NCBI GenBank assembly: GCA_963663475.2
Contig: CAXXJV010000001.1
Location: 2,510,578-2,574,577, forward strand
Direction of reading: 5' to 3'
DNA: 64,000 nucleotides
Source: Candidatus Cloacimonadales bacterium
Lineage (GTDB): Bacteria > Cloacimonadota > Cloacimonadia > Cloacimonadales > JAFGVF01
Both the position numbers and the translations under genes were made by a program. Below the pieces are notes generated by a model. It had not been told where the DNA came from, did not search any database, and was given only the letters and a program-made list of their open reading frames with translations. Positions 1 through 27,198 of this stretch are shown in pieces; the stretch's first letter is position 1, and every line of letters starts with the position of its first letter.

Positions 1-3000
1 ATCTAGGTGTGATTATCCAGTCATCATTCTGTCCTTCTGTAGAAGCAAATGATGTTAAGAATTTATCTCCACTTTGAGGAATCATATCTTCAATAGGTGG
101 AGTAGTTGCTGAAGGATTAAAGACCATATAAGACATTGCTGAACCAGCATTATCATAATCAACATTACTAATAGTATAAGTATTTCCACCATCTATATCA
201 TGCTGAATCCAACCAGGTAAGTTAAGGGTAAAGTCTTCATGATCATCAAAATCATCTCCCCATAATGGTTCACCAATATTATAGTAGATAATAATAGCAG
301 TATTTGATGGTAGGGAGAAACCTTCAGGATCTTCATACATACCAACAACATGATAGTGGTATTCTGTACCTACAACCACATTAGCATCATGGTAGAGATT
401 AGTTCCAATTGGGATCATTTCTTCAGTAATAACTTCACCATCTCTATAAATATGATAACCTGTTAGGTATCTTTCATAAGGAGGTTCAACCCAGGTTAAT
501 GCAACATAACCAGATTGATTAGAAGCTTCTAAGTTTAGAGGTGAATTGAAATCATAGTTATAATTAGCATCAACATAGAGATTATACAATCCTGTATCTT
601 CTCTAGTTAATCTTTCATTTTCTCCATTCTCATTCTTTCTTGTGTGTGGAGGTGTTGCACCTTGAGGGTAAACATTAGATTTGGCTACTCTAAGGTAGTA
701 GTTACCACTTTGAGGTAGAACAAATTCAATATTTGAGCCATTATCAAGATAAACAGCTGGGTCAATTTCACTAGCATCGTTAGCTGGACCATAAAGCCAC
801 ATAGAAGGATTTACATCTGAGCCACCAGCATCTTCTACTGAGCAAAGTAGAGTATCACTAATACCCATTGCAGGGATTAGATACCAATCAATATCACCAA
901 TAGGCATAATAGCATAAGTATCACCATCAACAGGAAGAGTTAATGTAACAGCATCTTCCGGAACATCATTATTATCATCAGCATAAGCGTAACCAGAAAT
1001 AACAACTTCATGAGTAACTCTAGTTGCATCATCAACTATTTGGATGGTAGCAGACTTCGTTCCTTCTGAGTTAGGAGTGAAAGCTACACCAATAGTAGCA
1101 ATATTATTGAAAGGTAATACTAAAGGATAAGTATTATTATCTGTTGTTATTGTAAATTGATCTGCATCATCTCCACCTAAAGTTGGAGCATTAGCAATTG
1201 TTACATCTTGGAGACCAATAGATCTCATAGTAATAGTCTTTTCAACTGAATTACCATCTACAGGAGTCATCTCAAATAGACTATTAGTAGGATAAACTGT
1301 TAAATCTGGAGCATCAGGAATATCACCAAATTCAAGTTTTATATTAGCAAAGGCATCTCTAATATAATTTGCACTTGGTGGTGCGACAGGATCAGGATTT
1401 GTGGAATCGCTATAATAAATAATACCTCGAGTGGAGTTAGAAGGGGTACAATAGAAGTCATTATCACTTGAATGATAACCAGGGGTATCTTCTTCAACAG
1501 CAACTACAAGGTTTTGGGTATTATCATAGACGAATGGAATATCTAATTCAAATTCAATCCAACCATCTTCTGCTGGGGCATTTAGAGTACCAGTATAAAC
1601 TTGCATAAACTCACCAATATCAATCCAGTCTTCATTATTAGCAAATTCATTCATATCTGTATGAGCCATGTATATTTTGAAATCATCTGGACCAAAAGCC
1701 CCAGTTCCATTATAATGCCAGGAAATTTTTTCAATACGAGAATCAGTAATTCCTATCTCATTAGCATAATAGATTACTTGCGAATAGGTATAGCCATAAT
1801 ATGGTTCAATTGGCATATTCAAATTCGTAGCAGTACCTGTACCAATAACAGCGATATTATCAGGTAATGCCGGTAATATAAAAGCATCTGTATATATAGT
1901 TATTGATTCATTATTAGTATCATTAGAAGTAACAGTAAATGAACCAGAATAATCTCCTTCAGCAATTGGGTTTAAACTAACATCTATGATTTCACTAGTT
2001 TCAGGTTCGATTGTAAGAGTTGTTGGATTGAAAGTAAGTTCAGTACCTGTAGAAGAAAGTTGGATTTCTAAATCACTTACACCCCAGTTTTCTACAGTGA
2101 GGTTACTTACGCCTGTCCTGTTCAAATAAACATCTCCGAAGTGAAGAGTGTCTTGGATAACTACTATAGCAGGACCAGTAGGAATATATTCAATAAAGAA
2201 ATTATCTATATATTGGGTAACATAAGTACCACCTGTTCCTAAATATTTAAGAACAATAAAACTAGCATTTTCATCAACACCAGCAAAATTTTGTACATAC
2301 TGTTGCCAATCTGAACTAAAGGTAATAGTATCAATTGCAGTGAAATTTAACTCACCAACATTGTTATGAGCTACACCAACAACAATCTGTCCACCATCAG
2401 TAGATGATTTCCCCATAAAACGAATACGTTTTGTAGTAAGGTCGTCTATAGGTGGAGTAATAGCATAGAGGTCAGGGTTTGTAGCATCAGCATTGTATAA
2501 TCTTAACGTAGATGGACTTTCATAACCACCGTAAGTATTTACTCCAACAGCAGAATATGTTGCAGCGTTTTCTATTACTGAAGCCCAATCTTGAGGAAGT
2601 TGTCCAATTTCGACATCTTCAAAACCTTCAAAATGAGGGAAATCATAAATCATAGCATCATAGCCAGAACCAGTAAGTGGTATCACTGTATCACCGTTTT
2701 CTGCATCATTAATAGTAATGTTAGCAGTAAAATCTCCCACACTTTGTGGATTAAAAGCAACAGAAAAATGTCCAACATTATCTGTAATTTCTAAAGGGTA
2801 AGTATTATCATCTGTAAAGATGAAATCACTTGTTTGGTCAATAGTTACGCTATTAATTGTTAAAGTTCCTAAACCAGTATTTCTCATTGAGAAAGTTGTA
2901 GCATTTGTGACAGTATTTATTATTGTATCATCCCAGTTATATTCTTCAGGGGTTATCATCAACTGAGGAGTAGTTGGTATATCACCCATTGTAAGAAGAA

Positions 3001-4411
3001 TGTTTGCTATAAATGCTTGAGTAGTTCCAGTTGGAGGGGAAATAAAACCATAATTAGTTACATCATTATAGTGGTAAATACTTTTATTTCCATTCGTTGA
3101 AGTAGCATGAAACTCGTCGCTTGATGAAGTATAACCTTGTGTATTAGCTTCAAAAGCAATAACTAAATTGTCATTATTGTTATAATTAAAAGGTATGGTT
3201 AAAGCTAGTGTAACCCATCCCTCTTCAGCTGGAACTGATAAAGGGCCATCATAACACAAGACAAAATCATTAATATCAAGCCAAGAATCACCATCCGCAA
3301 AGGCGTCTATTTGAGTATGACCTAAATATAATTGCACATTATCTTCTGTCCAAGCGCTATTACCATTATAATAGAAAGATACTTGTTCTATTCTTTGGTC
3401 TTCAATATTTAACCATTCTTGATCATAGATCATTTGTGTAAGTGAATAACCATAAAAAGGTTCCATAGGCAGGTGTGTATTTGCCTCTGTTCCGTTACCA
3501 ATAACAATTGATCCCTCTTCTGCACTTGTAGCAAATGACCAGATTGGAGAAGGTGTAGTGAATTCAATCAAGTTATTTCCTGCTTCAATTCTCCAATAAT
3601 AAGTTGTTAAGGGATTTAGATCATCAGTAGTTATTGTTTGCTGGGTATATTCTTCTGAGATTAGGGCTGCTTCTGTCATATCACTAACATCAGTATATAC
3701 ATCACTTAAATAAACGTTAACCCAATCAGTATTAACTCCATTTGTCCAAGTTAGTTCAACAGGAGATGATTGATTGAAAGAACCATTAGCAGGACTTGCT
3801 AATGTTGGGAGTCCTGGTTCATTTTCTGAAAGGTAATGGAATCTAGTATTTGGGAATACAGGAGATAACTGACCGTCTGCAGCAGGAAATGTTCCATCAG
3901 AATAACTAAAACAAGCCATTTCAGGTGAAGCTGAAGTAGCTGTAAAAATTGGTTGTGAAGATGCATAAGATCCATCATTATTAATAACTAAAACTTCTAA
4001 GTTATCACTACCATTGTAAGTAAAAGTTTGATCAAAAATTATATCAAACCAGCCTGTTCCATTATAAGTTAAAGTACCACTGAAAACTTCAGTATATGTT
4101 TCATCAGTAGTAGGATCAATATATGTTGGATTTACGAAGTTTTCCTCGGTAGTATTTTTTAAATAGAAAGTCTGGTTAAGCATCTCATAGTTGCTAGGTG
4201 TGTTGTTTACATGATAAGAAAGTTTGTTAATTTCCATCTCATTCTCTAAATCTGCGGCAGGATAAATAGTCCGTGACCAACCGTAATCATACCAGCCATA
4301 TGCTGGGATATAACTAGAGGTCTCATTTCCATCACCAACCTGTACAAAGACTGCATTTAAGGACATTATCAAGGTTAATAATGTTAAAACAACAATCATT
4401 TTCTTTTGCAT
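1..4411 (-). CDS. Large secreted multidomain surface/adhesin-like protein; N-terminal >=1470 codons, with the 3' end running off the left window edge (not in supplied ORF track)
   Basis: Own minus-strand translation. GGAG lies 5 nt upstream of the ATG at 4411-4409, followed by signal peptide MQKKMIVVLTLLTLIMSLNAVFVQ. Frame spot-checked stop-free at 1-120, 2041-2100, 3001-3060 and 4261-4411; it ends ...FASTEGQNDDWIITPR at base 2. Contains three copies of a module with G(N/T)GT-x7-P(M/I)EP(F/Y)YGY..Q.IY. Also has Ig-like choice-of-anchor-D-type segments, a DIDWY pre-peptidase-C-terminal-like segment and an FN3-like segment. Confidence 0.8.
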   Translation of the reverse strand, partial: MQKKMIVVLTLLTLIMSLNAVFVQVGDGNETSSYIPAYGWYDYGWSRTIYPAADLENEMEINKLSYHVNNTPSNYEMLNQTFYLKNTTEENFVNPTYIDPTTDETYTEVFSGTLTYNGTGWFDIIFDQTFTYNGSDNLEVLVINNDGSYASSQPIFTATSASPEMACFSYSDGTFPAADGQLSPVFPNTRFHYLSENEPGLPTLASPANGSFNQSSPVELTWTNGVNTDWVNVYLSDVYTDVSDMTEAALISEEYTQQTITTDDLNPLTTYYWRIEAGNNLIEFTTPSPIWSFATSAEEGSIVIGNGTEANTHLPMEPFYGYSLTQMIYDQEWLNIEDQRIEQVSFYYNGNSAWTEDNVQLYLGHTQIDAFADGDSWLDINDFVLCYDGPLSVPAEEGWVTLALTIPFNYNNNDNLVIAFEANTQGYTSSSDEFHATSTNGNKSIYHYNDVTNYGFISPPTGTTQAFIANILLTMGDIPTTPQLMITPEEYNWDDTIINTVTNATTFSMRNTGLGTLTINSVTIDQTSDFIFTDDNTYPLEITDNVGHFSVAFNPQSVGDFTANITINDAENGDTVIPLTGSGYDAMIYDFPHFEGFEDVEIGQLPQDWASVIENAATYSAVGVNTYGGYESPSTLRLYNADATNPDLYAITPPIDDLTTKRIRFMGKSSTDGGQIVVGVAHNNVGELNFTAIDTITFSSDWQQYVQNFAGVDENASFIVLKYLGTGGTYVTQYIDNFFIEYIPTGPAIVVIQDTLHFGDVYLNRTGVSNLTVENWGVSDLEIQLSSTGTELTFNPTTLTIEPETSEIIDVSLNPIAEGDYSGSFTVTSNDTNNESITIYTDAFILPALPDNIAVIGTGTATNLNMPIEPYYGYTYSQVIYYANEIGITDSRIEKISWHYNGTGAFGPDDFKIYMAHTDMNEFANNEDWIDIGEFMQVYTGTLNAPAEDGWIEFELDIPFVYDNTQNLVVAVEEDTPGYHSSDNDFYCTPSNSTRGIIYYSDSTNPDPVAPPSANYIRDAFANIKLEFGDIPDAPDLTVYPTNSLFEMTPVDGNSVEKTITMRSIGLQDVTIANAPTLGGDDADQFTITTDNNTYPLVLPFNNIATIGVAFTPNSEGTKSATIQIVDDATRVTHEVVISGYAYADDNNDVPEDAVTLTLPVDGDTYAIMPIGDIDWYLIPAMGISDTLLCSVEDAGGSDVNPSMWLYGPANDASEIDPAVYLDNGSNIEFVLPQSGNYYLRVAKSNVYPQGATPPHTRKNENGENERLTREDTGLYNLYVDANYNYDFNSPLNLEASNQSGYVALTWVEPPYERYLTGYHIYRDGEVITEEMIPIGTNLYHDANVVVGTEYHYHVVGMYEDPEGFSLPSNTAIIIYYNIGEPLWGDDFDDHEDFTLNLPGWIQHDIDGGNTYTISNVDYDNAGSAMSYMVFNPSATTPPIEDMIPQSGDKFLTSFASTEGQNDDWIITPR

Positions 4412-4921
4412 AGTCACTCCTTAATCGTGTTTAATAAATTCCTTAATTTTGGATTGTGCTCAATATACTTGATAACAAGTATCTATTTGCTATGGTGGTA
4501 GCAAATTCTTTTAATACAAATCAAAGAAAGCATATTATTTTTTTCTTGGCAAGTATTATTTTTAATTTTTCTTAATATTTTAACTTTTTGCGATAATTAA
4601 ATCTATCTTAACAGTGTTAATATCTTTTCCACTATTAATTTTTTATATTGTTAACTTAATATTTCTTAGTAGTGAAATTCTTGATTATTAGTTTCAGTTT
4701 ATTAATTCCTACTTTTACCAATTAAGCCACCAATAGATGTTTTTTGCTTGGATAAATTTTTATTAATTGTATCAAATTTTCAACAGTTCATTTACTCCCC
4801 CCGCCTAACGGCAAGCCTCTCATACCCCTCTAATGAGCAGAAAGGGGAATTAGATTCTCACACCAAGGCACGAAGAAGATAAGGAAGAATATTTTTAACA
4901 AAAATTATTTGGGATTTAACG

Positions 4922-5030: not shown

Positions 5031-5107
5031 TGGTAGCGAGAGGAGGATTTGAACCTCCGGCCTTCGGGTTATGAGCCCGACGAGCTACCAAACTGCTCCA
5101 TCTCGCG
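5031..5107 (-). tRNA. tRNA-fMet (initiator, anticodon CAT), copy 1
   Basis: Hand-folded cloverleaf of the reverse complement: cgcgaga / tcggg-ctcataa-cccga / ggagg-ttcaaat-cctcc / tctcgct-a-cca. Three G:C pairs close the anticodon stem and C1/U72 is unpaired (initiator hallmarks). CCA is encoded. Confidence 0.9.
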
Positions 5108-5118
5108 ACAATAAAAAA

Positions 5119-5195
5119 TGGGGTGGCTGATGGGGCTCGAACCCACGACGCCAGGAACCACAATCCTGTGCTCTACCAACTGAACTACAGCCACC
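5119..5195 (-). tRNA. tRNA-His (GTG)
   Basis: Cloverleaf with extra G-1 opposite C73. Anticodon arm cagga-ttgtggt-tcctg, T arm gtggg-ttcgagc-cccat, encoded CCA. Confidence 0.9.
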
Positions 5196-5235
5196 ATATT
5201 TAAGGTAAAATGTGTGTTTTATAATTTTAAAAGAA

Positions 5236-5312
<77 letters not shown>

Positions 5313-5321
5313 ACATTAAAA

Positions 5322-5398
5322 TGGTAGCGGCACAGGGACTCGAACCCCGGACACTCGGATTATGATTCCGATGCTCTAACCAACTGAGCTATGCCGCC
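5322..5398 (-). tRNA. tRNA with CAT anticodon (elongator Met, or Ile2 if lysidine-modified)
   Basis: Cloverleaf ggcggca / tcgga-atcataa-tccga / cgggg-ttcgagt-ccctg / tgccgct-a-cca. It lacks the GGG/CCC initiator signature. Met versus Ile2 cannot be separated by eye. Confidence 0.8.
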
Positions 5399-5405
5399 AT
5401 TTTTA

Positions 5406-5482
5406 TGGTAGCGAGAGGAGGATTTGAACCTCCGGCCTTCGGGTTATGAGCCCGACGAGCTACCAAACTGCTCCATCTCGCG
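5406..5482 (-). tRNA. tRNA-fMet (initiator, CAT), copy 2
   Basis: 77 nt identical to 5031-5107. Confidence 0.9.
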
Positions 5483-5595
5483 TCAAGTTTTATCAATTTA
5501 TAAAATAGTGTTTTTCTGTCAAGTAAAATTTTCATTTATTTGATTTTCACTTATCAATCAGGAAAGATTGATTAACACTAACACACTATATAGAA

Positions 5596-5672
5596 TGGCA
5601 CGCCCAAGAGGAGTCGAACCCCTAACCTTCTGATCCGTAGTCAGACACTCTATCCAATTGAGCTATGGGCGC
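5596..5672 (-). tRNA. tRNA-Arg (ACG)
   Basis: Cloverleaf gcgccca / tctga-ctacgga-tcaga / agggg-ttcgact-cctct / tgggcgt-g-cca. Confidence 0.9.
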
Positions 5673-5674
5673 AC

Positions 5675-6262
5675 ATCGTTTTTGCATAAAAAAACTAGGG
5701 GGTTTTATGTCAAGCATATTTTTTAACTTTTTTTAGTGATACTTAGCTATCATATTGATTAATTGAAGGTTAATAAGTCTTTTTATTTTTTATATTCTCC
5801 TTATAGGCTAGCATCTTATTCTTCTTTAATTGTTAGTCTCCCTGAAAAAATGGGATTTTTACAGGAAAAAGTATAAAAGTATAAAGTGACACCCAAGTTT
5901 TCCATCTGCAAAAACGATCCATATATCTCATAAAATCCCACACATTAAACTCTTACACCTATTTTCAATCGTTTTTTCAAAATTTCCAATTTAACTGCTT
6001 TCACAGGAAACTTTATCGTTTGATTTATACTTTTAAAGTAGTTTTGTGGTTGTAAAGAACACCATTAATAACCTTAAACATCTAATAAATAAAGAATTAG
6101 TCTATTTTGTAGTTTTAAGGCAATTGAAAAAAATCGTTTTTACGCTTTTTTCTCACTGCAAAAACGATTCGGTTTCTCACATTTGATAAAAAAGCGTAAA
6201 AACGATTTTGAAGAAGTGACAGAGTTTTTTCATTATTGATAAAAAACCGTAAAAACGATTTT
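5675..6262. repeat. Iteron-like field: seven copies of (G/T)nAAAAACGAT on both strands, including a 27-nt direct repeat
   Basis: Core AAAAACGAT (or its complement) occurs at 5675-5685(-), 5908-5918(+), 5968-5978(-), 6133-6145(-), 6158-6168(+), 6194-6206(+) and 6247-6259(+). TTGATAAAAAA(G/C)CGTAAAAACGATTTT at 6183-6209 and 6236-6262 is 26/27 identical. 6129-6151 is the inverted copy of 6187-6209. Confidence 0.75.
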
Positions 6263-6287
6263 AACTTTATTAACAATATAGCGTTAA

Positions 6288-8156
6288 TTATTTTTGAAAA
6301 GTAACGTCCAAACTCGCTCCGTATAAATTCTTTTCGATTATTCTGTATCGACATTTAGATTCTATAGTTTTGCTTAGAACAGTTTTCAGTTCTTTCTTAG
6401 CTGTAGAAACTCTTTTATTCTTGCTCTTGCAGCTTTTAGTTTCTAGCAATCTAATTTTTAACGAATCATTTTTTAGTTCTATGATTATTGAATCAATATC
6501 TGTTATGCAAGATTCACTTGGTTTCTTTCTGAAGTCATAAATATTTATTCTCGAGTTATATATCAGAGCAAATCCTTCAAAGTTTCTTAGTGTATTCTTT
6601 AAATGATTAACTTCATGTTTCCTGCCTTTGTCTGAGATACCTTCTTGGTGCCTGTCCAAGTCTTCCTTAATCAATTCAAAATTATCATGAGGTGTTTTGA
6701 TATAAAATTTTTGGTGATCTATTTCTTGTACTTCACTCAATCTATAATCATCTTTAAATATGAATTTCAGTATTGCCCAAAATAGATTTTCATAAGATGG
6801 TATTAGATCTTTATCTAAAACTTTGAATAAAATATACTTATGGGCATTTGTATCTGTTTTAAAGATATTATTTAACTTTTCACTTGGTATGCCATTTTGT
6901 TTTGCTCTTTGTTTGAGCTCATTAAACATAACATTATGAATCATTTTTGGGTTAGATACTTGCAATTCACTTTCTTTTAATAACATATTACATATATTAA
7001 AATTGATAGTAACAAAACTTGAAGAAGTAAACTTTTCTGTAAAAAAAATATCTGCTGATCTAGCATTTGTAATCGGATTGTGATCTAAATACGTTTCTAT
7101 GCCAACGCAGTGCTTTCTTAATATTGATATTCTTCTAACTTCATCATAAAAATTAATTCTTGATCTGTGGACTGGTAATTTGAATCTAACATAAGGAATA
7201 TAAGATTTTATTTCTTTAGTAACTAATCCTGTTTGAATAGCATCTCTGATAATTTCTTTATATTGTGATGCTTGTTTCTTCTTAACATCAATAATTTTCA
7301 ATGACTCAATTTCATAAGATTTTTGTAGTGCACAAACTTCTGGATCATGATAAATTGAATCATATAGTTCATTTACAAAAGGATTTAAACTACTATTAAT
7401 ATTCAATTTAACAACTCTATCGGAATTATTTAAAGAGTTAATGAATGAAAAAATATCAGCATTAAATGGTATATGCGAATAGTGTGCATCTATTGAGATA
7501 ATTGATAATTTTCGTATAATTCCATAAACATCCGTTAATTGTTGAAGTTTATGAATATTTAACTTGCAAGAGTTAGAACTTAGCAACATTTTAAACAAAA
7601 ACCTAATACTTTGCTTCATTTCTGTACTCAAAGAAGAGTTTCTATCTAGTCTATGCAAAGAAATTAAAAAATGAAACTTTGAAACATCGAAATTATTAAT
7701 TATGACATTGGCAATTTCTTCAAGCTCATTATCTAAATTACATAAGAAAATTGATTTAAATCCTTTTAACTTTTTTGCAAACTTTAACAATGATCGTTCA
7801 TCTGCATATGTATTCTTAGTGTGCCCAAAATTTGACAGCATAAACCAACTTTTAAGAATACTGTTACCTGTATATTCTTGACCGTTAACTTTGATACTTC
7901 CTAGGGAAAAACTCGAGCCTTTATGAATATTATCAAATAAATCAACCATAGCACACTGTAACATCAGATATTCATACCTGCTATGGGATGCTCCATCAAA
8001 TGTTTTTTCAATCAACCCCAAATGCTTAATTCTTTTCTGTCTATCAAACTCTTTTTCAGTTTCATACAATGAATAAACACTTCGAGCAATATCATAAAAT
8101 TTTATAGAGACTAGTCCAAAACTAGGGATAGCTACCTTATGAATAATTGAGGACAA
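6288..8156 (-). CDS. Orphan 622-aa protein: degenerate HD-phosphohydrolase-like N-terminal region plus PD-(D/E)xK nuclease-like C-terminal region (candidate defence effector)
   Basis: Long ORF with a TTG start 6 nt after GGAG, which sits directly behind the stop of the S24 gene (12-nt gap). FDRQKRIKHLGL..GASHSRYEYLMLQ and WFMLSNFGHTKNTYADE resemble the SAMHD1/COG1078 signature with the metal ligands replaced. The C-terminus ITDIDSIIIEL..LKIRLLETKS gives a D...ExK arrangement. Confidence 0.7.
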   Translation of the reverse strand: MSSIIHKVAIPSFGLVSIKFYDIARSVYSLYETEKEFDRQKRIKHLGLIEKTFDGASHSRYEYLMLQCAMVDLFDNIHKGSSFSLGSIKVNGQEYTGNSILKSWFMLSNFGHTKNTYADERSLLKFAKKLKGFKSIFLCNLDNELEEIANVIINNFDVSKFHFLISLHRLDRNSSLSTEMKQSIRFLFKMLLSSNSCKLNIHKLQQLTDVYGIIRKLSIISIDAHYSHIPFNADIFSFINSLNNSDRVVKLNINSSLNPFVNELYDSIYHDPEVCALQKSYEIESLKIIDVKKKQASQYKEIIRDAIQTGLVTKEIKSYIPYVRFKLPVHRSRINFYDEVRRISILRKHCVGIETYLDHNPITNARSADIFFTEKFTSSSFVTINFNICNMLLKESELQVSNPKMIHNVMFNELKQRAKQNGIPSEKLNNIFKTDTNAHKYILFKVLDKDLIPSYENLFWAILKFIFKDDYRLSEVQEIDHQKFYIKTPHDNFELIKEDLDRHQEGISDKGRKHEVNHLKNTLRNFEGFALIYNSRINIYDFRKKPSESCITDIDSIIIELKNDSLKIRLLETKSCKSKNKRVSTAKKELKTVLSKTIESKCRYRIIEKNLYGASLDVTFQK

Positions 8157-8168
8157 ACATTTCTCCTT

Positions 8169-8753
8169 TTAAATAACCCTAAACAGAAAGACCATCTCAC
8201 CTAAGATCCTGAAGGTCTCAAGTTCAAAGTCTTCTATTATTATTACATCAAAATCTGGATTAAGTGGTTTAAGTATAACCCTCTTCTTCTCTTTATCAAA
8301 TTGTAGTTTTTTTAAAGTAGCACCTTCAGGTGTATGACAAGCACATACTTTACCATTCAAACTTGGTATATCTATGTTCTCTCTTATAACAACAACATCT
8401 CCATGAGCAATTATTGGGAACATACTGTTTCCATTAACCTTGAGAGCTATATACTTGTTCTCTTGATCTGACAAATAAGCTTTTGGTATCTCTATATACT
8501 TTGATGGAGCATCATCATAACCATTCATTGGAGTACCTGCAGCAATCTCTCCATATATAGGTAGAGTTATAACCCTTGAATCGAAAGGGTTGAGTTTATG
8601 TTTATATACTGAGTTATTTCCTGTCATCTCTTCTATATTCTTTTTATGACCATCTCCATAGAGATTTCCATCAGAATCTAAAACAAACATTCCACCTTTA
8701 CCAGTTAATAACCAATTTAAGTTTAAACCATAGCGTTCGTTGATACGAGCCAT
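8169..8753 (-). CDS. S24 (LexA/CI-type) self-cleaving peptidase domain ORF; C-terminal part of a frameshifted XRE-HTH/S24 repressor
   Basis: Ala-Gly cleavage site (GEIAAGTPM), catalytic Ser (VNGNSMFP) and Lys (GATLKKL). The N-terminus starts inside the end of an HTH (YGLNLNWLLTGKG). The missing HTH lies upstream in another frame (8770-8895). Confidence 0.8.
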   Translation of the reverse strand: MARINERYGLNLNWLLTGKGGMFVLDSDGNLYGDGHKKNIEEMTGNNSVYKHKLNPFDSRVITLPIYGEIAAGTPMNGYDDAPSKYIEIPKAYLSDQENKYIALKVNGNSMFPIIAHGDVVVIRENIDIPSLNGKVCACHTPEGATLKKLQFDKEKKRVILKPLNPDFDVIIIEDFELETFRILGEMVFLFRVI

Positions 8754-8769
8754 GGCTGTTGCTGGAGGT

Positions 8770-8895
8770 TTACTTGTTTTTTCTGTTCAACCAATCTGAT
8801 AGATTACCTGATGTGACCTCAATAGTATTCGTAAACTCGGAACGCTTTATATCAAGAGCATTTACGAACATTAACAGCCTATCTTTTATATCCAT
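8770..8895 (-). pseudogene. XRE-type HTH fragment (41 codons), separated by one frameshift from the S24 domain ORF
   Basis: AGGAG-N6-ATG; MDIKDRLLMFVNALDIKRSEFTNTIEVTSGNLSDWLNRKNK*. Removing one A from the A6 run (forward T6 at 8777-8782) fuses it to ..KTSKPPATAMARINERYGLNLNWLLTGKG. Confidence 0.7.
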
Positions 8896-8930
8896 TTAAT
8901 CTCCTATCTTTTATATCCATTTAATCTCCT
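8881..8930 (-). repeat. Perfect 25-bp tandem duplication covering RBS, ATG and the first five codons of the repressor gene (plus a degenerate third unit to ~8950)
   Basis: atcttttatatccatttaatctcct appears twice (8881-8905, 8906-8930). On the coding strand this reads AGGAGATTAAATGGATATAAAAGAT x2. Confidence 0.9.
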
Positions 8931-8949
8931 ATCTTATATATCATTCCAT

Positions 8950-9052
8950 TTCGCATTGTTGCACACTGATGCGTTGGACTGAAACTTTTCCTTGACTACT
9001 TTCGCATATTTTGCTTTATAGATTTAGTAATCATTATTTGCAACATTGCGAA
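8950..9052. promoter_or_regulatory. Three operator-like sites in the divergent repressor / Cro-like intergenic region
   Basis: TTCGCATTGTTGCA (8950-8963,+), TTCGCATATTTTGC (9001-9014,+) and TTCGCAATGTTGCA (reverse complement of 9039-9052). The core GCAA-NN-TTGC is palindromic. Confidence 0.55.
8992..9020 (+). promoter_or_regulatory. Candidate sigma70 promoter of the Cro-like gene
   Basis: TTGACT(8992-8997)-N17-TTTATA(9015-9020). The spacer is occupied by operator-like site 9001-9014. Confidence 0.4.
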
Positions 9053-9081
9053 CAATGTCAATAAAAATTTAGGAGGTTCGA

Positions 9082-9324
9082 ATGAGATCACCATATCATC
9101 CTGCTGTAATAAGATCAGCTATGACGCTTAAAAGACTCACAACAAAGGCATTAGCCGAACGCTTATTCATCTCCAGAAGATCATTAGATTATTTTATTAA
9201 TGAAGGAATACATATAAGAAAAGCAGAAGATGTCTTAGAAATTCTTCAACCTGAGCTTGATGAGATAAGTGAAATTTATCGCAAACACACTAACATAGAA
9301 GTCGAGAGTTGCGAAAAGAGGTAA
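9082..9324 (+). CDS. Small HTH DNA-binding protein (Cro/excisionase-like), divergent from the S24 repressor
   Basis: AGGAGG RBS 6 nt upstream. Helix-turn-helix-like LTTKALAERLFISRRSLDYFINEG. Confidence 0.6.
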   Translation: MRSPYHPAVIRSAMTLKRLTTKALAERLFISRRSLDYFINEGIHIRKAEDVLEILQPELDEISEIYRKHTNIEVESCEKR

Positions 9325-9385
9325 TGATGGAATACAAAGAACTAACAGTTAACAACAAGAGTTTAACTAGGAAAATATCCAGTTA

Positions 9386-9646
9386 ATGAGTTATGTAGGA
9401 TTAAAAAATTTAAATACAATCCTGATGGTCGCAGTTGATATAATATACTCTGCTATAAAATATTTAGATGAGCTATTATACTTATACCCAGAATTTGGAA
9501 ATTTGAAAGAACAGACATATAAATATGTATATTATAAGCTTAGCAGAGTCATAAAACATATATTCAGCAATACAAAACTTAACAAGATTTTACCCTGCAA
9601 AGGTGAATATCATGACAAGTTACAGCTGAAGATCAATTTTTCTTAA
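9386..9646 (+). CDS. Hypothetical 86-aa protein
   Basis: ORF only; chained to upstream ORFs through TAATG overlaps. No recognisable motif. Confidence 0.35.
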   Translation: MSYVGLKNLNTILMVAVDIIYSAIKYLDELLYLYPEFGNLKEQTYKYVYYKLSRVIKHIFSNTKLNKILPCKGEYHDKLQLKINFS

Positions 9647-9683
9647 AAAAAATGGGGGTATGCCAAAAATTACTAAAAATTAC

Positions 9684-9713
9684 TTGACATTACTAGAACA
9701 TACGGCTTAAATA
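9684..9713 (+). promoter_or_regulatory. Candidate sigma70 promoter of the FG-GAP gene
   Basis: TTGACA(9684-9689)-N18-TAAATA(9708-9713). Confidence 0.4.
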
Positions 9714-14400: not shown

Positions 14401-16075
14401 AGCCATTGAACTTTCAGGTTCTGTTTTAGGTCTTGTAGTTTTAGATGGTGTAACCTTTAACAACTTTAATAAAGGAATAAATATTGTGAGTTTTAATAAT
14501 TCACCCTCATATTTTGAAAATATAGTGATTGCTGATTGTGAATTTAACAATTGCGATAGTGGAATATTGCTCACCGATTCACCTTCTTTTGGACAAATCA
14601 ATATAAACACAACTGCATTTAACAATATTGATGATGAAGGAATTGGAGTATATATATTCAATACTAATACAAGCGTCAATATAGATAGCTGTTCATTTTC
14701 TGGTAATGGTACAGGAATATCTACTACTGGTATATCTCCATTTATTTCTAATTCCATATTTTCTAATTTAACAGTAGGTGTTAAAGAAGAATTAACAATT
14801 TCAAATACTGTAGCTAAGATAAAAGATTGTACTTTTAGGTATTGTGATACTGGATTTGAAGGTAGAGAATCCACAACAAGATTGGAAGAGAATACTTTTC
14901 AAGAAAATATAACAGGTATCAAATCTCTAACAAATTCAGTTTTAGATATTTCTTATAATGCTTATAATATTTTTGATAATTCGATTAGAAATTTATATTT
15001 TCCAACAGATGAACCCAATGACTATTTAATAAAGTGTTTAAAAGGGCATAACGATTTCTACCATAGATTTTCTCCACCAAATACACTAGCAAATGATTTT
15101 GATTTTACTGTACCTATTATGAATAGGATTGGTATAGATGCAAGTTATAATTGGTTCTCAACTTCTACAGTGAGAGTTGCACCAGCATCAATGTCTAATT
15201 ATGTTTCGGTTAATGAATTCGATCCTGTCTCAAATTCTTTTTACCCACCTTCTATAACACCCGATAGATTTTATGAAGCCCTATGTGAAGAAAATAGTGG
15301 TTATAACTTAGAAGCATATCTAATATATAAATTAATTTTAGATGAAGCTATACCAACTGAGAGTAGTCTCTGGGCTAGTTGTGTTGATGGTATTTATAGA
15401 AACTCTTATATTATTGGTATTGATATTTTAGAAGTTGATAGCTATATGGAAGATAAAGTAGAACAATTTTCATCTATTGATAACTCCTTATCAGAAATGA
15501 TTGACAACTATATAATGAGAGTTCATTTACTTTACAAGAATTACAATGAGGTTATAACTATTCTCGAGAATAGAATTAATTGTCCAACTTCTGAAATTGA
15601 CTCTCTTAGTGCTGTACTTGATTTAGAGATAGTACTAAAATTGGCTAACGCTTCGCAAGGTAAATCTGAGGTTAATACAACTTTTGCTCAATATAAATAT
15701 AAGACATTTGAGAAGTTCGAAGAAGAACATGCAAAGCATTGGGACATATATAATGATATGACAAAAGATGATGAATCAGATTATAATGTTCTTCCTCCTA
15801 ACAAGCTTAATCTATCTAACTACCCAAATCCTTTTAATCCTGAAACGACTATCATGTTTGGTTTACCTGAAGATAGTGACATAGAGATAAAGATATACAA
15901 TCTAAAAGGACAAGTTGTTAAAAAACTTGTAAAAGATCACTTTAAAGCAGGCTATCATGCTGTTGTTTGGAATGGTAAGAATGATAGTAATCAAAAAGTT
16001 GCTTCTGGTGTTTATCTAACAAGAATAACTTCTAAAGAGAAAACTAAAACTAAAAAGATAATGCTTATGAAATAG
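11438..16075 (+). CDS. 1545-aa secreted protein: unknown N-terminal half, parallel beta-helix-like repeat region, T9SS-type/FlgD-Ig-like C-terminal domain
   Basis: AAGGAG RBS and signal peptide. Asn/Ile/Ser-rich ~22-aa periodic region at about aa 800-1180. C-terminal NYPNPFNPETTIMFGL..IKIYNLKGQVV..WNGKNDSNQKVASGVYL. Confidence 0.8.
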   Translation: MKRLFVTVSLAIFVLSCWSSIRDDFLIGNYGYIHPAYGETSYTRLFTLMQEANYNSSICSPVKLTQYPWGDLSTMLSKMEQCDLTPILYDNYTNYSNGVINEISPRNLSMGIYAKFEAEFDSREDNNIPESDRHIEENNDIYHYHFDIDRIGAINQAFGRRFLFCSPTTMTEDVIVDNLRHRWKNHKNGVDGDFIDNADYLPYKEAFEFSNGSDELNYIQYNKLYMTVCYKVSSDTSSALKFGLKLLNIDANDNEEWYFKEIRNTMNNDYGNVLTYTAQELNDPAITYVDTLEFSDFRKITFELELSSLLDGEINSRDNDDSRSYLYNFHSRKRLNGITPYIYWEGNHDVRIDYIEFEDDVHKQIVDGVALDALENRLNKYSSVHNHYTVDEPKFTHFDSHKLIDERLNNYNIITTNWPINFKEKKPNNTRYFHPGQFVEQAQPDDLMIDFYPLKPDANWNNIDDDNFVQFLIDWWACANYRRAKHKAEDRPFYVVPCTAGKWDNRFNIWVGYQYPTINMIKCLQYLPLCYGVDGIIDFPFYKDTTFNDNDPEDNGHRWYALVNDDDNDSIHPNGRHITPQYYAIKEANEKVYRYGNILKDLTWLDATTIKANGIQALDSEIYIIGQNQEEGEDKPLNNSIYKYFPTGGIKTSSIGNNNDRDTYNGYIHIGLFEDEYGHQKYMLVNRRTDFVEDSSGLMNTLNPDILTSRYEDQVSFFQASPQCVNFDLDYATEDFNNSFGSHVALYDPYSKEIYRPNSENVISVELKPGEGKMLEFVNYLSGDITISPLPYLDGHYVIGDTLNIDDNVSLSFSPESRVCIKDSTIINICKNAKLSLSGSVEINSTINADSLATLELLNTYKCLLGDGVKLNANNGTIIIENSSLEAITDKWGGLYSDNLANLNSCIIIKNSELKQFSNLSMHNGFLTILDDSNLYFTQRYTVLKNVTTNIHNSILNFEHNGFRYFNSNLEGNIYITNTQFNGSSNLKAIELSGSVLGLVVLDGVTFNNFNKGINIVSFNNSPSYFENIVIADCEFNNCDSGILLTDSPSFGQININTTAFNNIDDEGIGVYIFNTNTSVNIDSCSFSGNGTGISTTGISPFISNSIFSNLTVGVKEELTISNTVAKIKDCTFRYCDTGFEGRESTTRLEENTFQENITGIKSLTNSVLDISYNAYNIFDNSIRNLYFPTDEPNDYLIKCLKGHNDFYHRFSPPNTLANDFDFTVPIMNRIGIDASYNWFSTSTVRVAPASMSNYVSVNEFDPVSNSFYPPSITPDRFYEALCEENSGYNLEAYLIYKLILDEAIPTESSLWASCVDGIYRNSYIIGIDILEVDSYMEDKVEQFSSIDNSLSEMIDNYIMRVHLLYKNYNEVITILENRINCPTSEIDSLSAVLDLEIVLKLANASQGKSEVNTTFAQYKYKTFEKFEEEHAKHWDIYNDMTKDDESDYNVLPPNKLNLSNYPNPFNPETTIMFGLPEDSDIEIKIYNLKGQVVKKLVKDHFKAGYHAVVWNGKNDSNQKVASGVYLTRITSKEKTKTKKIMLMK

Positions 16076-26122: not shown

Positions 26123-26476
26123 TTAAACATAATCGTAGAACAGGCTTTTGATAGCCCTGTATAATTTATTAATATCAAAATCATACATCATCAGGAGAAT
26201 TGTGAAAATTACTAAAGCAACAAAAAGAATAACCCAGAGAAAATTAGCATAAAGCATATGAATGCTAGCCCAAAAATGAACTTTAGGTACAGAGACAGAA
26301 TTACTATTATTCTTATCTATCTTATCGTAAATTACCTGAGATTCCGTTCCCCACATAATCTCATTTTCAGGATCTTCATCATCGATATAAGGTATATACC
26401 CCATCTTGTTATACCTATCCAGTAAATTCTTAGGTATTGTTGCAATTTCATTATCAGTAAGCATTCTTTTAGCCAT
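26123..26476 (-). CDS. 117-aa membrane protein co-transcribed with the second XRE/S24 repressor
   Basis: 11-nt gap with GGAG RBS after the repressor stop. One C-terminal TM segment, FLWVILFVALVIFTILLMM. Confidence 0.5.
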   Translation of the reverse strand: MAKRMLTDNEIATIPKNLLDRYNKMGYIPYIDDEDPENEIMWGTESQVIYDKIDKNNSNSVSVPKVHFWASIHMLYANFLWVILFVALVIFTILLMMYDFDINKLYRAIKSLFYDYV

Positions 26477-26487
26477 ATAAGCTCCTT

Positions 26488-27198
26488 CTATTCAAACTTC
26501 CTATAGAGAAATGTCATGACACCTATTAGAGCACAATCAGCGTGATCTTGAGGTTCAATGACAATAGTTTCAAAACCTTCGTTCAATGGTATTAATAATA
26601 ACTGATGGGTATTCTTGTCAAGCTTCATTTTCTTTAATGTTACTTCCCCATCTAATCTTACAGCACAAATCTTACCATTACTTCTTTCCCAGTCATTTGA
26701 TTTCTCAATAAGAATAACATCCCCATTCTTTATCACAGGCTCCATGGAAGAGCCATTAACTTTGAGACAGAGGTAGTTTTCAGCTTTGCCATGAATCTGG
26801 TCTCTAGAGAATTTAACATCTCCAAAGTCATCATGTTTTGATTCTATAGGCATACCAGCAGAAATTTCACCTGAGATGGGAATTGTAATCATTGAATCAT
26901 CAAAGAATTTCATTTTAGCTTCAATAACTTTATGAATATGATTATCAAGGACCTTTTCAAGTTGATCTATTTCTTTAACCTTAGAACCTTCAATAACCAT
27001 ATTACCTTTGCCAGTAATTAACCAGTGAAGATTTATTCCGTATAGGTTACAGAGCTTATTCATAGTATCAATAGAGGGTTTGATTTTACCTGATTCCATT
27101 TGAGATAGAGCAGAAGCTTTAAGATTTAGTCTGTCTGCCAGCTCAATTTGCTTGATATTACGAGTTTTTCTGATTTCTTTAATTCTTGAACCTATCAT
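26488..27198 (-). CDS. XRE-HTH / S24 peptidase repressor (LexA/CI-like), intact paralog
   Basis: HTH IKQIELADRLNLKASALSQMESGK, YGINLHWLITGKG, Ala-Gly site GEISAGMP, Ser VNGSSMEP, Lys VTLKKM. Confidence 0.85.
   Translation of the reverse strand: MIGSRIKEIRKTRNIKQIELADRLNLKASALSQMESGKIKPSIDTMNKLCNLYGINLHWLITGKGNMVIEGSKVKEIDQLEKVLDNHIHKVIEAKMKFFDDSMITIPISGEISAGMPIESKHDDFGDVKFSRDQIHGKAENYLCLKVNGSSMEPVIKNGDVILIEKSNDWERSNGKICAVRLDGEVTLKKMKLDKNTHQLLLIPLNEGFETIVIEPQDHADCALIGVMTFLYRKFE

Follow-up and report, generated by a model that had tools for sequence, protein, structure and literature searches.

The question raised by this locus is what kind of element lies between a tRNA cluster and genes for cargo proteins of the type IX secretion system (T9SS) in a genome of Candidatus Cloacimonadales (assembly GCA_963663475.2, contig CAXXJV010000001.1), and what the 622-amino-acid (aa) protein encoded in it may do. 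The window analysed is a stretch of 64,000 nucleotides (positions 2,510,578 to 2,574,577 of the forward strand), and coordinates below are those of the window unless a related locus is named. A sequence-only reading had proposed that 5673-9662 hold an integrase-less immunity cassette of a decayed prophage or satellite, with a self-cleaving repressor, a divergent regulator and a nuclease-like passenger. The phage-derived stretch is 5880-9353. It is what remains of the left end of a Mu-like transposable prophage, from a family that occurs in Candidatus Cloacimonadales. From left to right it comprises the left-end block (attL), the gene for the 622-aa cargo protein, a gene for a helix-turn-helix (HTH)-S24 repressor, an operator/promoter region, a Ner/Cro-like gene (ner hereafter) and 10 codons of a transposase gene. 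In this 3.5-kb stump the cargo and ner genes are intact and the repressor is disrupted (Table 1). The explanation that best accounts for the locus as a whole, and which we consider quite probable, is that a Mu-like left-end stump retains a repressor-cargo operon whose defence slot is occupied by a 622-aa defence factor. The gene order and coordinates given previously were matched by the listing of the open reading frames (ORFs), and the idea of an immunity module holds for a decayed prophage module with an S24 repressor, a divergent Cro/Ner-like gene and a foreign passenger, but not for a satellite with att repeats.

Table 1. Features of the prophage stump and its right-hand neighbour (window coordinates).
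Feature	Position	Strand	Remarks
attL left end	5880-6263	-	Conserved terminal block of ~385 bp with six AAAAACGAT/ATCGTTTTT cores
Hairpin and U7	6130-6209 (hairpin), 6123-6129 (U7)	-	79 nt downstream of the cargo stop codon
Cargo gene, 622 aa	6288-8156	-	TTG start; AAGGAG Shine-Dalgarno sequence 6 nt upstream
HTH-S24 (CI/LexA-type) repressor, disrupted	8169-8895	-	HTH 8770-8895 (41 codons); S24 ORF 8169-8753 (194 codons)
Tandem 25-bp units, three	8871-8945	-	Span the Shine-Dalgarno sequence and start codon of the repressor
Operator/promoter region	8950-9061		Full operators 8950-8963 (+) and 9039-9052 (-); half-site ~9000-9013
Ner/Cro-like 80-aa gene, intact	9082-9324	+	Divergent from the repressor; stop overlaps the transposase start (TAATG)
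MuA-like transposase remnant	9324-9353	+	First 10 codons (MMEYKELTVN), the same as at the start of the 680-aa protein of L011
3'-terminal ~336 bp of an insertion sequence (IS)	9354-9689	+	DDE_Tnp_1 family; not phage

Comparisons by blastn revealed DNA homology to related prophages at 5880-6263 and 8168-9353 only. The repressor/ner region was 77-91% identical to those of L008, L010, L011 and L012 and 67-70% identical to those of L013 and L014. In a scan of one genome per species, repressor matches were confined to metagenome-assembled genomes of Candidatus Cloacimonadales/Cloacimonadota, with three copies in OY782781.1; the repressor had no match in IMG/VR, and a scan of metagenomes with it returned just three short loci. 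In L011-L014, the ner gene is followed by a gene for a 672-680-aa protein that begins with MMEYKELTVND. The 680-aa protein of L011 contains Mu-transpos_C (E = 1.1e-18) and rve domains and matches the transposase family phrog_310 (E = 2e-85). This transposase also matched 260 phage records, including those of Fusobacterium phiRTG5 and Bacillus BalMu-1, in which the corresponding gene carries the annotation transposase or transposase A. Beyond the transposase gene, the relatives encode a 237-aa MuB-like AAA ATPase (which in L011 matches AAA_22, TniB and phrog_296, a DNA transposition protein), a DUF3164 protein, the small and large terminases and head-morphogenesis proteins. In the window, no MuA/MuB sequence was found beyond the 10 codons, and the morphogenesis genes were likewise absent. 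The 80-aa gene shares 97.5% identity with its counterpart in L011, which lies immediately before the MuA-like transposase gene there. The 80-aa product had no significant family match in Pfam, NCBIfam, PHROGs or PADLOC, and its assignment as Ner/Cro-like comes from its position and HTH-like sequence.

The observation that the cassette contains no integrase was borne out, as no integrase or site-specific recombinase was found in it. Because the family transposes by a DDE transposase and the transposase gene has been deleted here, an integrase is not expected. What had been read as a 20-codon mini-ORF begins with the first 10 codons of the MuA-like transposase gene, which run on into IS sequence. 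Other stumps of the family have been truncated at different points: L015 retains 50 S24 codons of the repressor together with its cargo gene and attL, L009 lacks ner and the transposase gene, and L010 lacks the cargo gene and attL. It should be noted that none of the fetched loci spans both phage ends.

The organization of the left end is similar to that of phage Mu (attL, c repressor, ner, A, B) and of B3/Fc02, D3112, BalMu-1 and the hankyphage, in which the first regulatory gene from the left end is that of the repressor, read towards this end; in the hankyphage, a CI-like repressor is found at one extremity (PMC12135933). Further similarities to Mu are a divergent ner gene coupled to the gene for a DDE transposase (Mu-transpos_C and rve), a MuB-like ATPase, terminal repeats and insertion sites that vary between copies. 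Unlike Mu, the family has an HTH-S24 repressor that is predicted to be of the autocleavable type, a 5'-TA terminus and an exchangeable defence slot of 1-2 kb between the repressor and attL. To our knowledge, Repc of Escherichia coli Mu has no S24 domain.

The left border is defined by the attL block. Counterparts of this block with 70-96% identity occur in L008, L009, L011 (two copies), L012 and L015, likewise downstream of the cargo. Seven aligned copies of this end stop together at ...GGTGTCACTTT[A/T]TA (also given as ...GATGGAAAACTTGGGTGTCACTTT[A/T]TA) and then continue into seven unrelated flanks, and in L012 a host glyoxalase gene begins 2-3 bp past the phage end. Given that the seven copies end together and that the glyoxalase gene lies directly beyond, the phage terminus is placed at window position 5880, from where the sequence reads inward as TATAAAGTGACACCCAAGTTTTCCATCTGCAAAAACGAT. 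The repeat field noticed previously downstream of the 622-aa gene is real and corresponds to the AAAAACGAT repeats of attL. There are seven AAAAACGAT sites in the 64-kb window, all of them in 5675-6259, compared to 0.56 expected, and 6 of the 7 are within the attL block; these repeats are likely transposase-binding sites. If transposition were of the Mu type, inverted TATAAAGTGACACCC would be predicted at the right end, together with a short target duplication. The pair TGTCAAG (5708)...CTTGACA (9689) was considered as Mu-type terminal inverted repeats and rejected: each belongs to a TTGACA sequence, of a promoter or of an IS end, and the phage terminates at 5880 instead. The seventh AAAAACGAT site of the window, the sole one not in attL, is the 12-mer ATCGTTTTTGCA directly upstream of tRNA-Arg(acg), which equals the phage-end motif ATCGTTTTTGCAG (window 5675-5709). 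This stretch belongs to a promoter/leader of the tRNA operon that is common to L011, and its resemblance to the phage end may be due to chance or to target mimicry, or may mark an old solo end.

The attL block also contains a hairpin with arms of 26 nt that are 96% complementary. Its predicted RNA fold has a free energy of -33.8 kcal/mol (z = -6.4), and none of 200 shuffled sequences was as stable. Of the six other end copies, that of L012 has a degenerate hairpin and the remaining five retain it. From its sequence and location, it may be the intrinsic terminator of the repressor-cargo operon, an inverted pair of transposase sites, or both. The matches to Rfam at 6129-6210 were sub-threshold microRNA models that merely reflect the hairpin, and they were discarded.

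The right border lies at the junction 9353|9354, which reads ...ACAGTTAAC|AACAAGAG... and has no real microhomology. From exactly 9354 the window is collinear with L019 9544-16331 (93.6% identical), and the same position is the exact start of homology to the IS, in that 9354-9689 matches the 3' end of a complete IS copy (L019 18440-18775) with 96.7% identity. The 86-aa ORF (9386-9646, plus strand), which had been counted as a gene of the cassette, is the C-terminus of the IS transposase, corresponding to residues 293-389 of a 389-aa DDE_Tnp_1 transposase with 96% identity (tblastn); its translation had no significant match in Pfam, NCBIfam, PHROGs or PADLOC. As read from the sequence, a deletion that runs from transposase codon 11 into the neighbouring IS explains the structure of the junction. 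L019 is the closest available relative (~94% identical to the right of the junction) and has no cassette at this site, so that synteny is not kept between the two. It could be argued that 9353|9354 is instead an artefact of metagenome assembly across repeated IS copies, as IS copies are indeed repeated in these genomes and the genome comes from a metagenome assembly. We find this hardly credible, as the breakpoint cuts through the IS 336 bp before its end, within the transposase gene, rather than falling at a repeat boundary where assemblers switch, and the contig is a 2.9-Mb assembly. DDE_Tnp_1 IS fragments are found upstream of the FG-GAP/T9SS gene both in the window (9354-9689) and in L019 (8954-9879 and 18440-19700), and the gene order around the IS differs among the window, L019, L020 and L011, which indicates a rearrangement hotspot.

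These two borders differ from those proposed previously, at which imperfect direct repeats (5686-5709 and 9643-9662) were thought to bracket the element; the phage ends are at 5880 and at the junction with the IS fragment. The two repeats match at 18 of 24 bases, which was reached by 1 of 300 shuffled sequences and by 0.7% of random genomic pairs. The repeats are therefore better than chance, as had been supposed, but they are not att sites and do not delimit the element. The right repeat AAAATGGGGGTATG is native IS sequence and recurs in the cassette-less IS copies at L019 18480 and 9839, as well as in L020 and L021, two contigs that both begin inside the IS fragment. The left repeat is the spacer of the tRNA-operon promoter, which is common to L011, and lies 170-195 bp outside the phage end at 5880. 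An integrase-less satellite or island, inserted at the tRNA cluster, bounded by these repeats and holding the 622-aa gene under SOS control, is thus very improbable, even though the repeats exceed chance and the locus adjoins a tRNA cluster. In addition to the origins of the two repeats, the cassette abuts the 5' side of tRNA-Arg and not the 3' end of a tRNA gene that is usually targeted by integrases, so that it does not qualify as a tRNA-associated island, and the 86-aa ORF and the mini-ORF are fragments of the IS and of the transposase gene.

The surroundings of the stump are as previously described, with a cluster of six tRNA genes on the left (5031-5672) and genes for FG-GAP proteins with Por_Secre_tail domains on the right. 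The cassette had also been described as more AT-rich than its flanks. A windowed scan of the guanine-plus-cytosine (GC) content confirmed this for the cargo gene, attL and the spacer (5673-8156), at 26-28% GC compared to a window mean of 32.3% (standard deviation 1.6) and within the lowest 1.1% of 1.9-kb windows, but not for the S24-ner part, whose GC content is 34-35%; the cargo gene itself has 27.9%. Hence, only the cargo side is compositionally foreign. The stump is separate from the insertion in L011 (OY782781.1), where a prophage lies 518 bp upstream of an orthologous Arg-Met-Met-Arg-His-Met tRNA cluster (L011 10001-14745). An insertion orthologous to that of L011 was considered and rejected: no alignment was obtained between the flanks beyond the phage end, and identity is 91-96% for the phage DNA, compared to 76% for a neighbouring host gene. 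The L011 prophage carries a tandem duplication of the unit made of partial S24, PDC-S31 cargo and attL. It also has a third phage end, which is degenerate, at 14500-14527. The L015 stump is ~460 bp from a tRNA-Pro/Val cluster and, together with L011, hints at a preference for the vicinity of tRNA operons.

The S24 peptidase domain of the repressor is real: it matches the full profile of Pfam PF00717 with E = 4.8e-21, and direct reading shows the Ala-Gly cleavage site in IAAGTP, the Ser in GNSM and the Lys in TLKKL. The repressor is not, however, one intact gene as was first thought, as its HTH and S24 halves are in different frames. In a seven-copy alignment, the A-run at 8777-8782 is A6 in the window and A7 to A9-10 in the six relatives, and this 2-bp deletion, found only in the window copy, splits the frame. 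Full-length relatives are 242 aa and read through as ...NRKKASKPSPPAMARINE... (same 90%-identity cluster), and the window repressor is 94.6% identical to the L011 protein. One of the three 25-bp units around the repressor start is a duplication seen in the window copy alone, being absent from L008-L012 and L016, and it gives rise to an upstream ORF of 13 codons.

These lesions bear on whether the host has domesticated the module, in which case the repressor-cargo operon would still function and be maintained by the host for SOS-responsive defence, the frameshift would be a sequencing error or be bypassed, and the decay would be only apparent. In favor of this, both the cargo ORF and the ner ORF are intact, and the cargo protein has every family-invariant residue. 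The remnants in L015 and L009 also keep the cargo ORF and attL after loss of the lytic genes (L010 keeps the repressor region only, with no attL match), and a homopolymer run is the classic place for an assembly error. We nevertheless regard domestication as unlikely. Genuine decay is suggested by the co-occurrence of a 2-bp homopolymer change and a 25-bp duplication over the start codon; programmed -1 frameshifting on A AAA AAC, considered as a rescue of the repressor, was rejected on direct reading, since the slip enters the wrong frame; and A6 is short for transcriptional slippage. As a separate observation on frameshifts in these assemblies, the orthologue of the 538-aa FG-GAP/T9SS gene in L019 (10001-11632, in a 2.88-Mb genome) is split into ORFs of 223 and 269 aa. 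This split is either a pseudogene or an assembly frameshift, and bears on how far homopolymer frameshifts in these assemblies can be trusted.

The control region with operator-like sites between the divergent genes is present and conserved, and consists of two full sites and a half-site. Perfect TTCGCAWTGTTGCA sites occur exactly twice in the 64 kb, as the inverted pair of full operators, and both operators and the central half-site are conserved in relatives. On the minus strand, a Pc-like promoter, TTGACA (9061-9056)-17-AATAAT (9038-9033), has an operator in its spacer and is the best sigma-70-like match in the region. On the plus strand, a Pe-like promoter facing ner, TTGACT (8993-8998)-17-TTTATA (9016-9021), was recognized by eye and fails the -10 rule of the tool. 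From these sequences we infer Pc-like and Pe-like promoter function. Given that an operator lies in the spacer of the repressor-side promoter, the repressor-cargo operon is probably negatively autoregulated.

At all of the loci that retain both the 3' end of the repressor gene and attL, one or two genes on the same strand are found between them. The gap between the repressor stop and the cargo start is 9-13 nt in the window (12 nt), L008, L009 and L011, and in L015 the cargo starts within a few nt of the repressor remnant. The DNA in this slot is unrelated from locus to locus, and several of the genes in it match defence families in PADLOC: the cargo of L015 is PDC-S56 (E = 2.5e-192), that of L011 is PDC-S31 (E = 3.4e-41), that of L009 is bSEFIR (E = 6.6e-52), preceded by a UDG-like gene, and that of L008 is PDC-M30A/M41A-like, followed by a radical-SAM gene. 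An Old-family ATPase (PADLOC, E = 1.5e-56) is found near the slot in L013. From these arrangements, we infer that the stretch between repressor and attL is an exchangeable slot for defence genes. At L013 10740-14205, an HNH endonuclease gene (HNH_5) and the gene for the Old-family ATPase-TOPRIM protein adjoin the repressor, and at L009 300-8950 the stump lies beside genes for a DEAD helicase, an SMC-like protein, a Dnd-associated protein and an AAA_15/21 protein. In these two loci the prophage stumps are embedded in, or are seeding, larger defence islands.

In intact relatives, the repressor promoter would drive the repressor gene and then the cargo gene on one transcript. Since the cargo is on the same strand and begins 9-13 nt after the repressor stop, a lysogen would express it constantly. 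RecA-stimulated cleavage of the intact repressor would lead to a transient rise in cargo expression. In the window copy, with its repressor broken, cargo expression would be unregulated or under the control of Ner. The suggestion that the 622-aa gene is under DNA-damage control thus has to be recast: such control is possible in intact relatives, where the passenger is predicted to be co-transcribed downstream of the repressor and is not a separately repressed target. A comparable case is the Pseudomonas Mu-like phage Fc02, in whose lysogens repc shares a transcript with an accessory gene downstream of it and with exclusion genes (PMC9936078).

The arrangement is also similar to that of lambda cI-rexA-rexB, in which the cargo lies directly downstream of the lysogeny repressor gene on the same strand and rexAB is expressed with cI. 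Prophage defence hotspots have been described in P2/P4 (Rousset et al., 2022), as have defence genes of mycobacteriophages (Dedrick et al., 2017), both as cited in PMC10884400. Similar to these hotspots, the content of a fixed slot varies here among otherwise similar phages. In contrast to lambda and P2/P4, the host belongs to a different phylum, the phage is of the transposable type, the cargo families are others (PDC-S56, PDC-S31, bSEFIR, PDC-M30/41-like and the 622-aa family), and co-transcription is predicted from gene arrangement. Literature searches on defence hotspots of Mu-like and other transposable phages turned up no description of such a slot.

The 622-aa protein had no match in Pfam, PADLOC (no family at E<=1), PHROG or NCBIfam and none in 50,697 phage records, and its gene had no DNA homology to any related prophage. 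The 642-aa cargo of L015 is not a homologue either (best E = 0.011). Its 29 close homologues are ~630 aa long and 31-37% identical, and the named ones are from Bacillaceae; the superfamily consists of at least 636 clusters at 50% identity, with named members from Bacillaceae and this Cloacimonadales copy. The homologues are stand-alone genes. Their neighbours include a type I restriction-modification operon (hsdMSR), genes for DndB with STAND and SMC proteins, DndB with a methyltransferase, HigB and Fic, ParDE, AAA_15/21 with pP_pnuc and RelA_SpoT, and recombinases. Given that the same slot in related prophages holds PDC-S56, PDC-S31, bSEFIR and PDC-M30/M41-like genes, the 622-aa gene is a candidate new defence gene, and from its sequence context its product is most likely a single-protein anti-phage defence factor.

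The AlphaFold2 model of the protein has a pLDDT (predicted local distance difference test score) of 86. In a Foldseek search of PDB, the top 50 matches were almost all SAMHD1, in addition to the uncharacterised Aquifex protein 2hek, with E = 2.7e-7 to 2e-5, a probability of 1.0, target template-modelling (TM) scores of 0.39-0.56 and 430-500 aligned columns. According to the model, the N-terminal ~470 aa have an all-helical fold like that of SAMHD1 and other HD deoxynucleoside triphosphatases (dNTPases). The protein resembles SAMHD1 and bacterial dGTPases in the fold of residues ~1-470 and in the N-terminal motif xRLxxIKQLG...GAxHxR, and the family profile aligned to the HD dNTPase EF1143 over EfxRqkkIKhLG...GAsHsRY. 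Unlike SAMHD1 and dGTPases, it has Y63 and S108-N109 in place of H...HD, an extra C-terminal domain of 145 aa and no match to the dGTPase family of PADLOC. Among the 127 full-length members of the family, the HD metal ligands are replaced: Y63 is found in 125, and positions 108-109 are S/L-N, with HD in none (the register of the motif is that of the EF1143 alignment and of what we take to be the canonical HD motif). The metal-binding motif H...HD...D is accordingly absent, D223 being the sole ligand retained of the canonical four. All 127 members keep D223, E515, D555 and K574, and 125 keep E572; H58, R60 and H112 are also conserved in the family, and the window protein has all of the family-invariant residues. 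Because the HD ligands are replaced, an extra domain is present and no PADLOC dGTPase was matched, the protein should not be filed as a dNTPase. Anti-phage defence by dGTPases acts through depletion of deoxynucleoside triphosphates (dNTPs); the degenerate SAMHD1-like domain here would probably bind a nucleotide or nucleic acid rather than hydrolyse dNTPs.

The C-terminal ~145 aa are modelled as an α/β domain (pLDDT 91) that contains E515, D555, E572 and K574, with a spacing of 17 residues from D to ExK and in a strand-hairpin context that would be compatible with a PD-(D/E)xK site. This E...D...ExK domain would be the effector, possibly a nuclease of the PD-(D/E)xK type. The earlier label of a nuclease-like passenger came from the motif alone, and a nuclease fold was not confirmed; with neither a structural nor a sequence relative of the domain, the label stays hypothetical. 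Shedu proteins consist of a variable N-terminal sensor and a C-terminal PD-(D/E)xK domain (bioRxiv 10.1101/2023.08.10.552793). The 622-aa protein may be similar to them in having a large, putative N-terminal sensor and a small C-terminal E...D...ExK domain and in being encoded by stand-alone genes in defence islands. It differs from Shedu in that it has no sequence match to Shedu/DUF4263 or any PD-(D/E)xK family of Pfam and no structural match.

The 622-aa gene may alternatively have no role in defence and act on behalf of the phage or of some other mobile element, for example through anti-defence, modification of the nucleotide pool or toxicity, or its product may be a diverged but active dNTPase. 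The fold is that of a dNTP triphosphohydrolase, the conservation of H58, R60, H112 and D223 makes some nucleotide or metal chemistry possible, and phages also carry counter-defence genes as cargo. We hold such a role to be improbable, given that the 127 members have other residues at three of the four canonical positions of the HD metal ligands, that the homologues are mostly chromosomal and in defence islands, with none in the phage records, and that the slots of sister prophages hold defence-type genes.

Several observations nonetheless count against the combination of prophage stump, operon and defence factor that we favor. The right end and the target-site duplication have been lost in the window, which leaves transposition into this site without direct proof, and the terminus is 5'-TA, compared to the 5'-TG that is typical of Mu. 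An assembly error might account for the frameshift in the homopolymer run of the repressor. Both promoters were recognized solely by their match to the consensus, and the control region has no excess of promoter-like sites (17 compared to 23 expected). None of the homologues of the 622-aa protein adjoins an S24 repressor gene, neither PADLOC v2 nor the phage database contains the family, its defence role is read from position and neighbourhood alone, and the PDC-S and PDC-M families are themselves candidates only. Finally, Foldseek searches with the C-terminal domain against PDB and BFVD gave no match at E<1e-3 (best E = 7e-3, TM ~0.2), no Pfam family recurred among 20 members over this domain, and a profile search of PDB was empty.

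The locus itself is an ordinary one, a dead prophage stump, and its interest lies in the defence slot of the phage family and in an unannotated family with the SAMHD1 fold. A Mu-like phage family in the uncultivated phylum Cloacimonadota that has an S24 repressor and a fixed slot between repressor and left end provides a positional rule for finding new defence genes. If the 622-aa protein is a defence protein, an immune dNTPase scaffold would have been converted into a sensor. A literature search on SAMHD1-like defence nucleases turned up no description of the 622-aa family. It is a tentative possibility, in our view rather less than an even prospect, that the ~630-aa proteins are an undescribed, widespread single-gene defence family, in which a SAMHD1 fold without its metal site serves as the sensor for an E/D/ExK effector, and that the slot is an unrecognised defence hotspot. 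As homologues occur in culturable Bacillaceae, among them Lysinibacillus sp. G01H and Priestia koreensis, the hypothesis on the 622-aa protein is directly testable.

Two further features of the window lie outside the stump. An ORF of at least 1473 codons (2-4420, minus strand) is located just beyond the tRNA cluster and runs off the start of the window. In addition to the disrupted prophage repressor, the window contains a second, intact HTH-S24 repressor gene (26488-27198, minus strand), whose 236-aa product is 35% identical to the prophage repressor. It lies among ordinary host genes, with an ORF for a 117-aa membrane protein downstream (26123-26476), and may encode a host LexA-like SOS regulator or be another orphan immunity gene.

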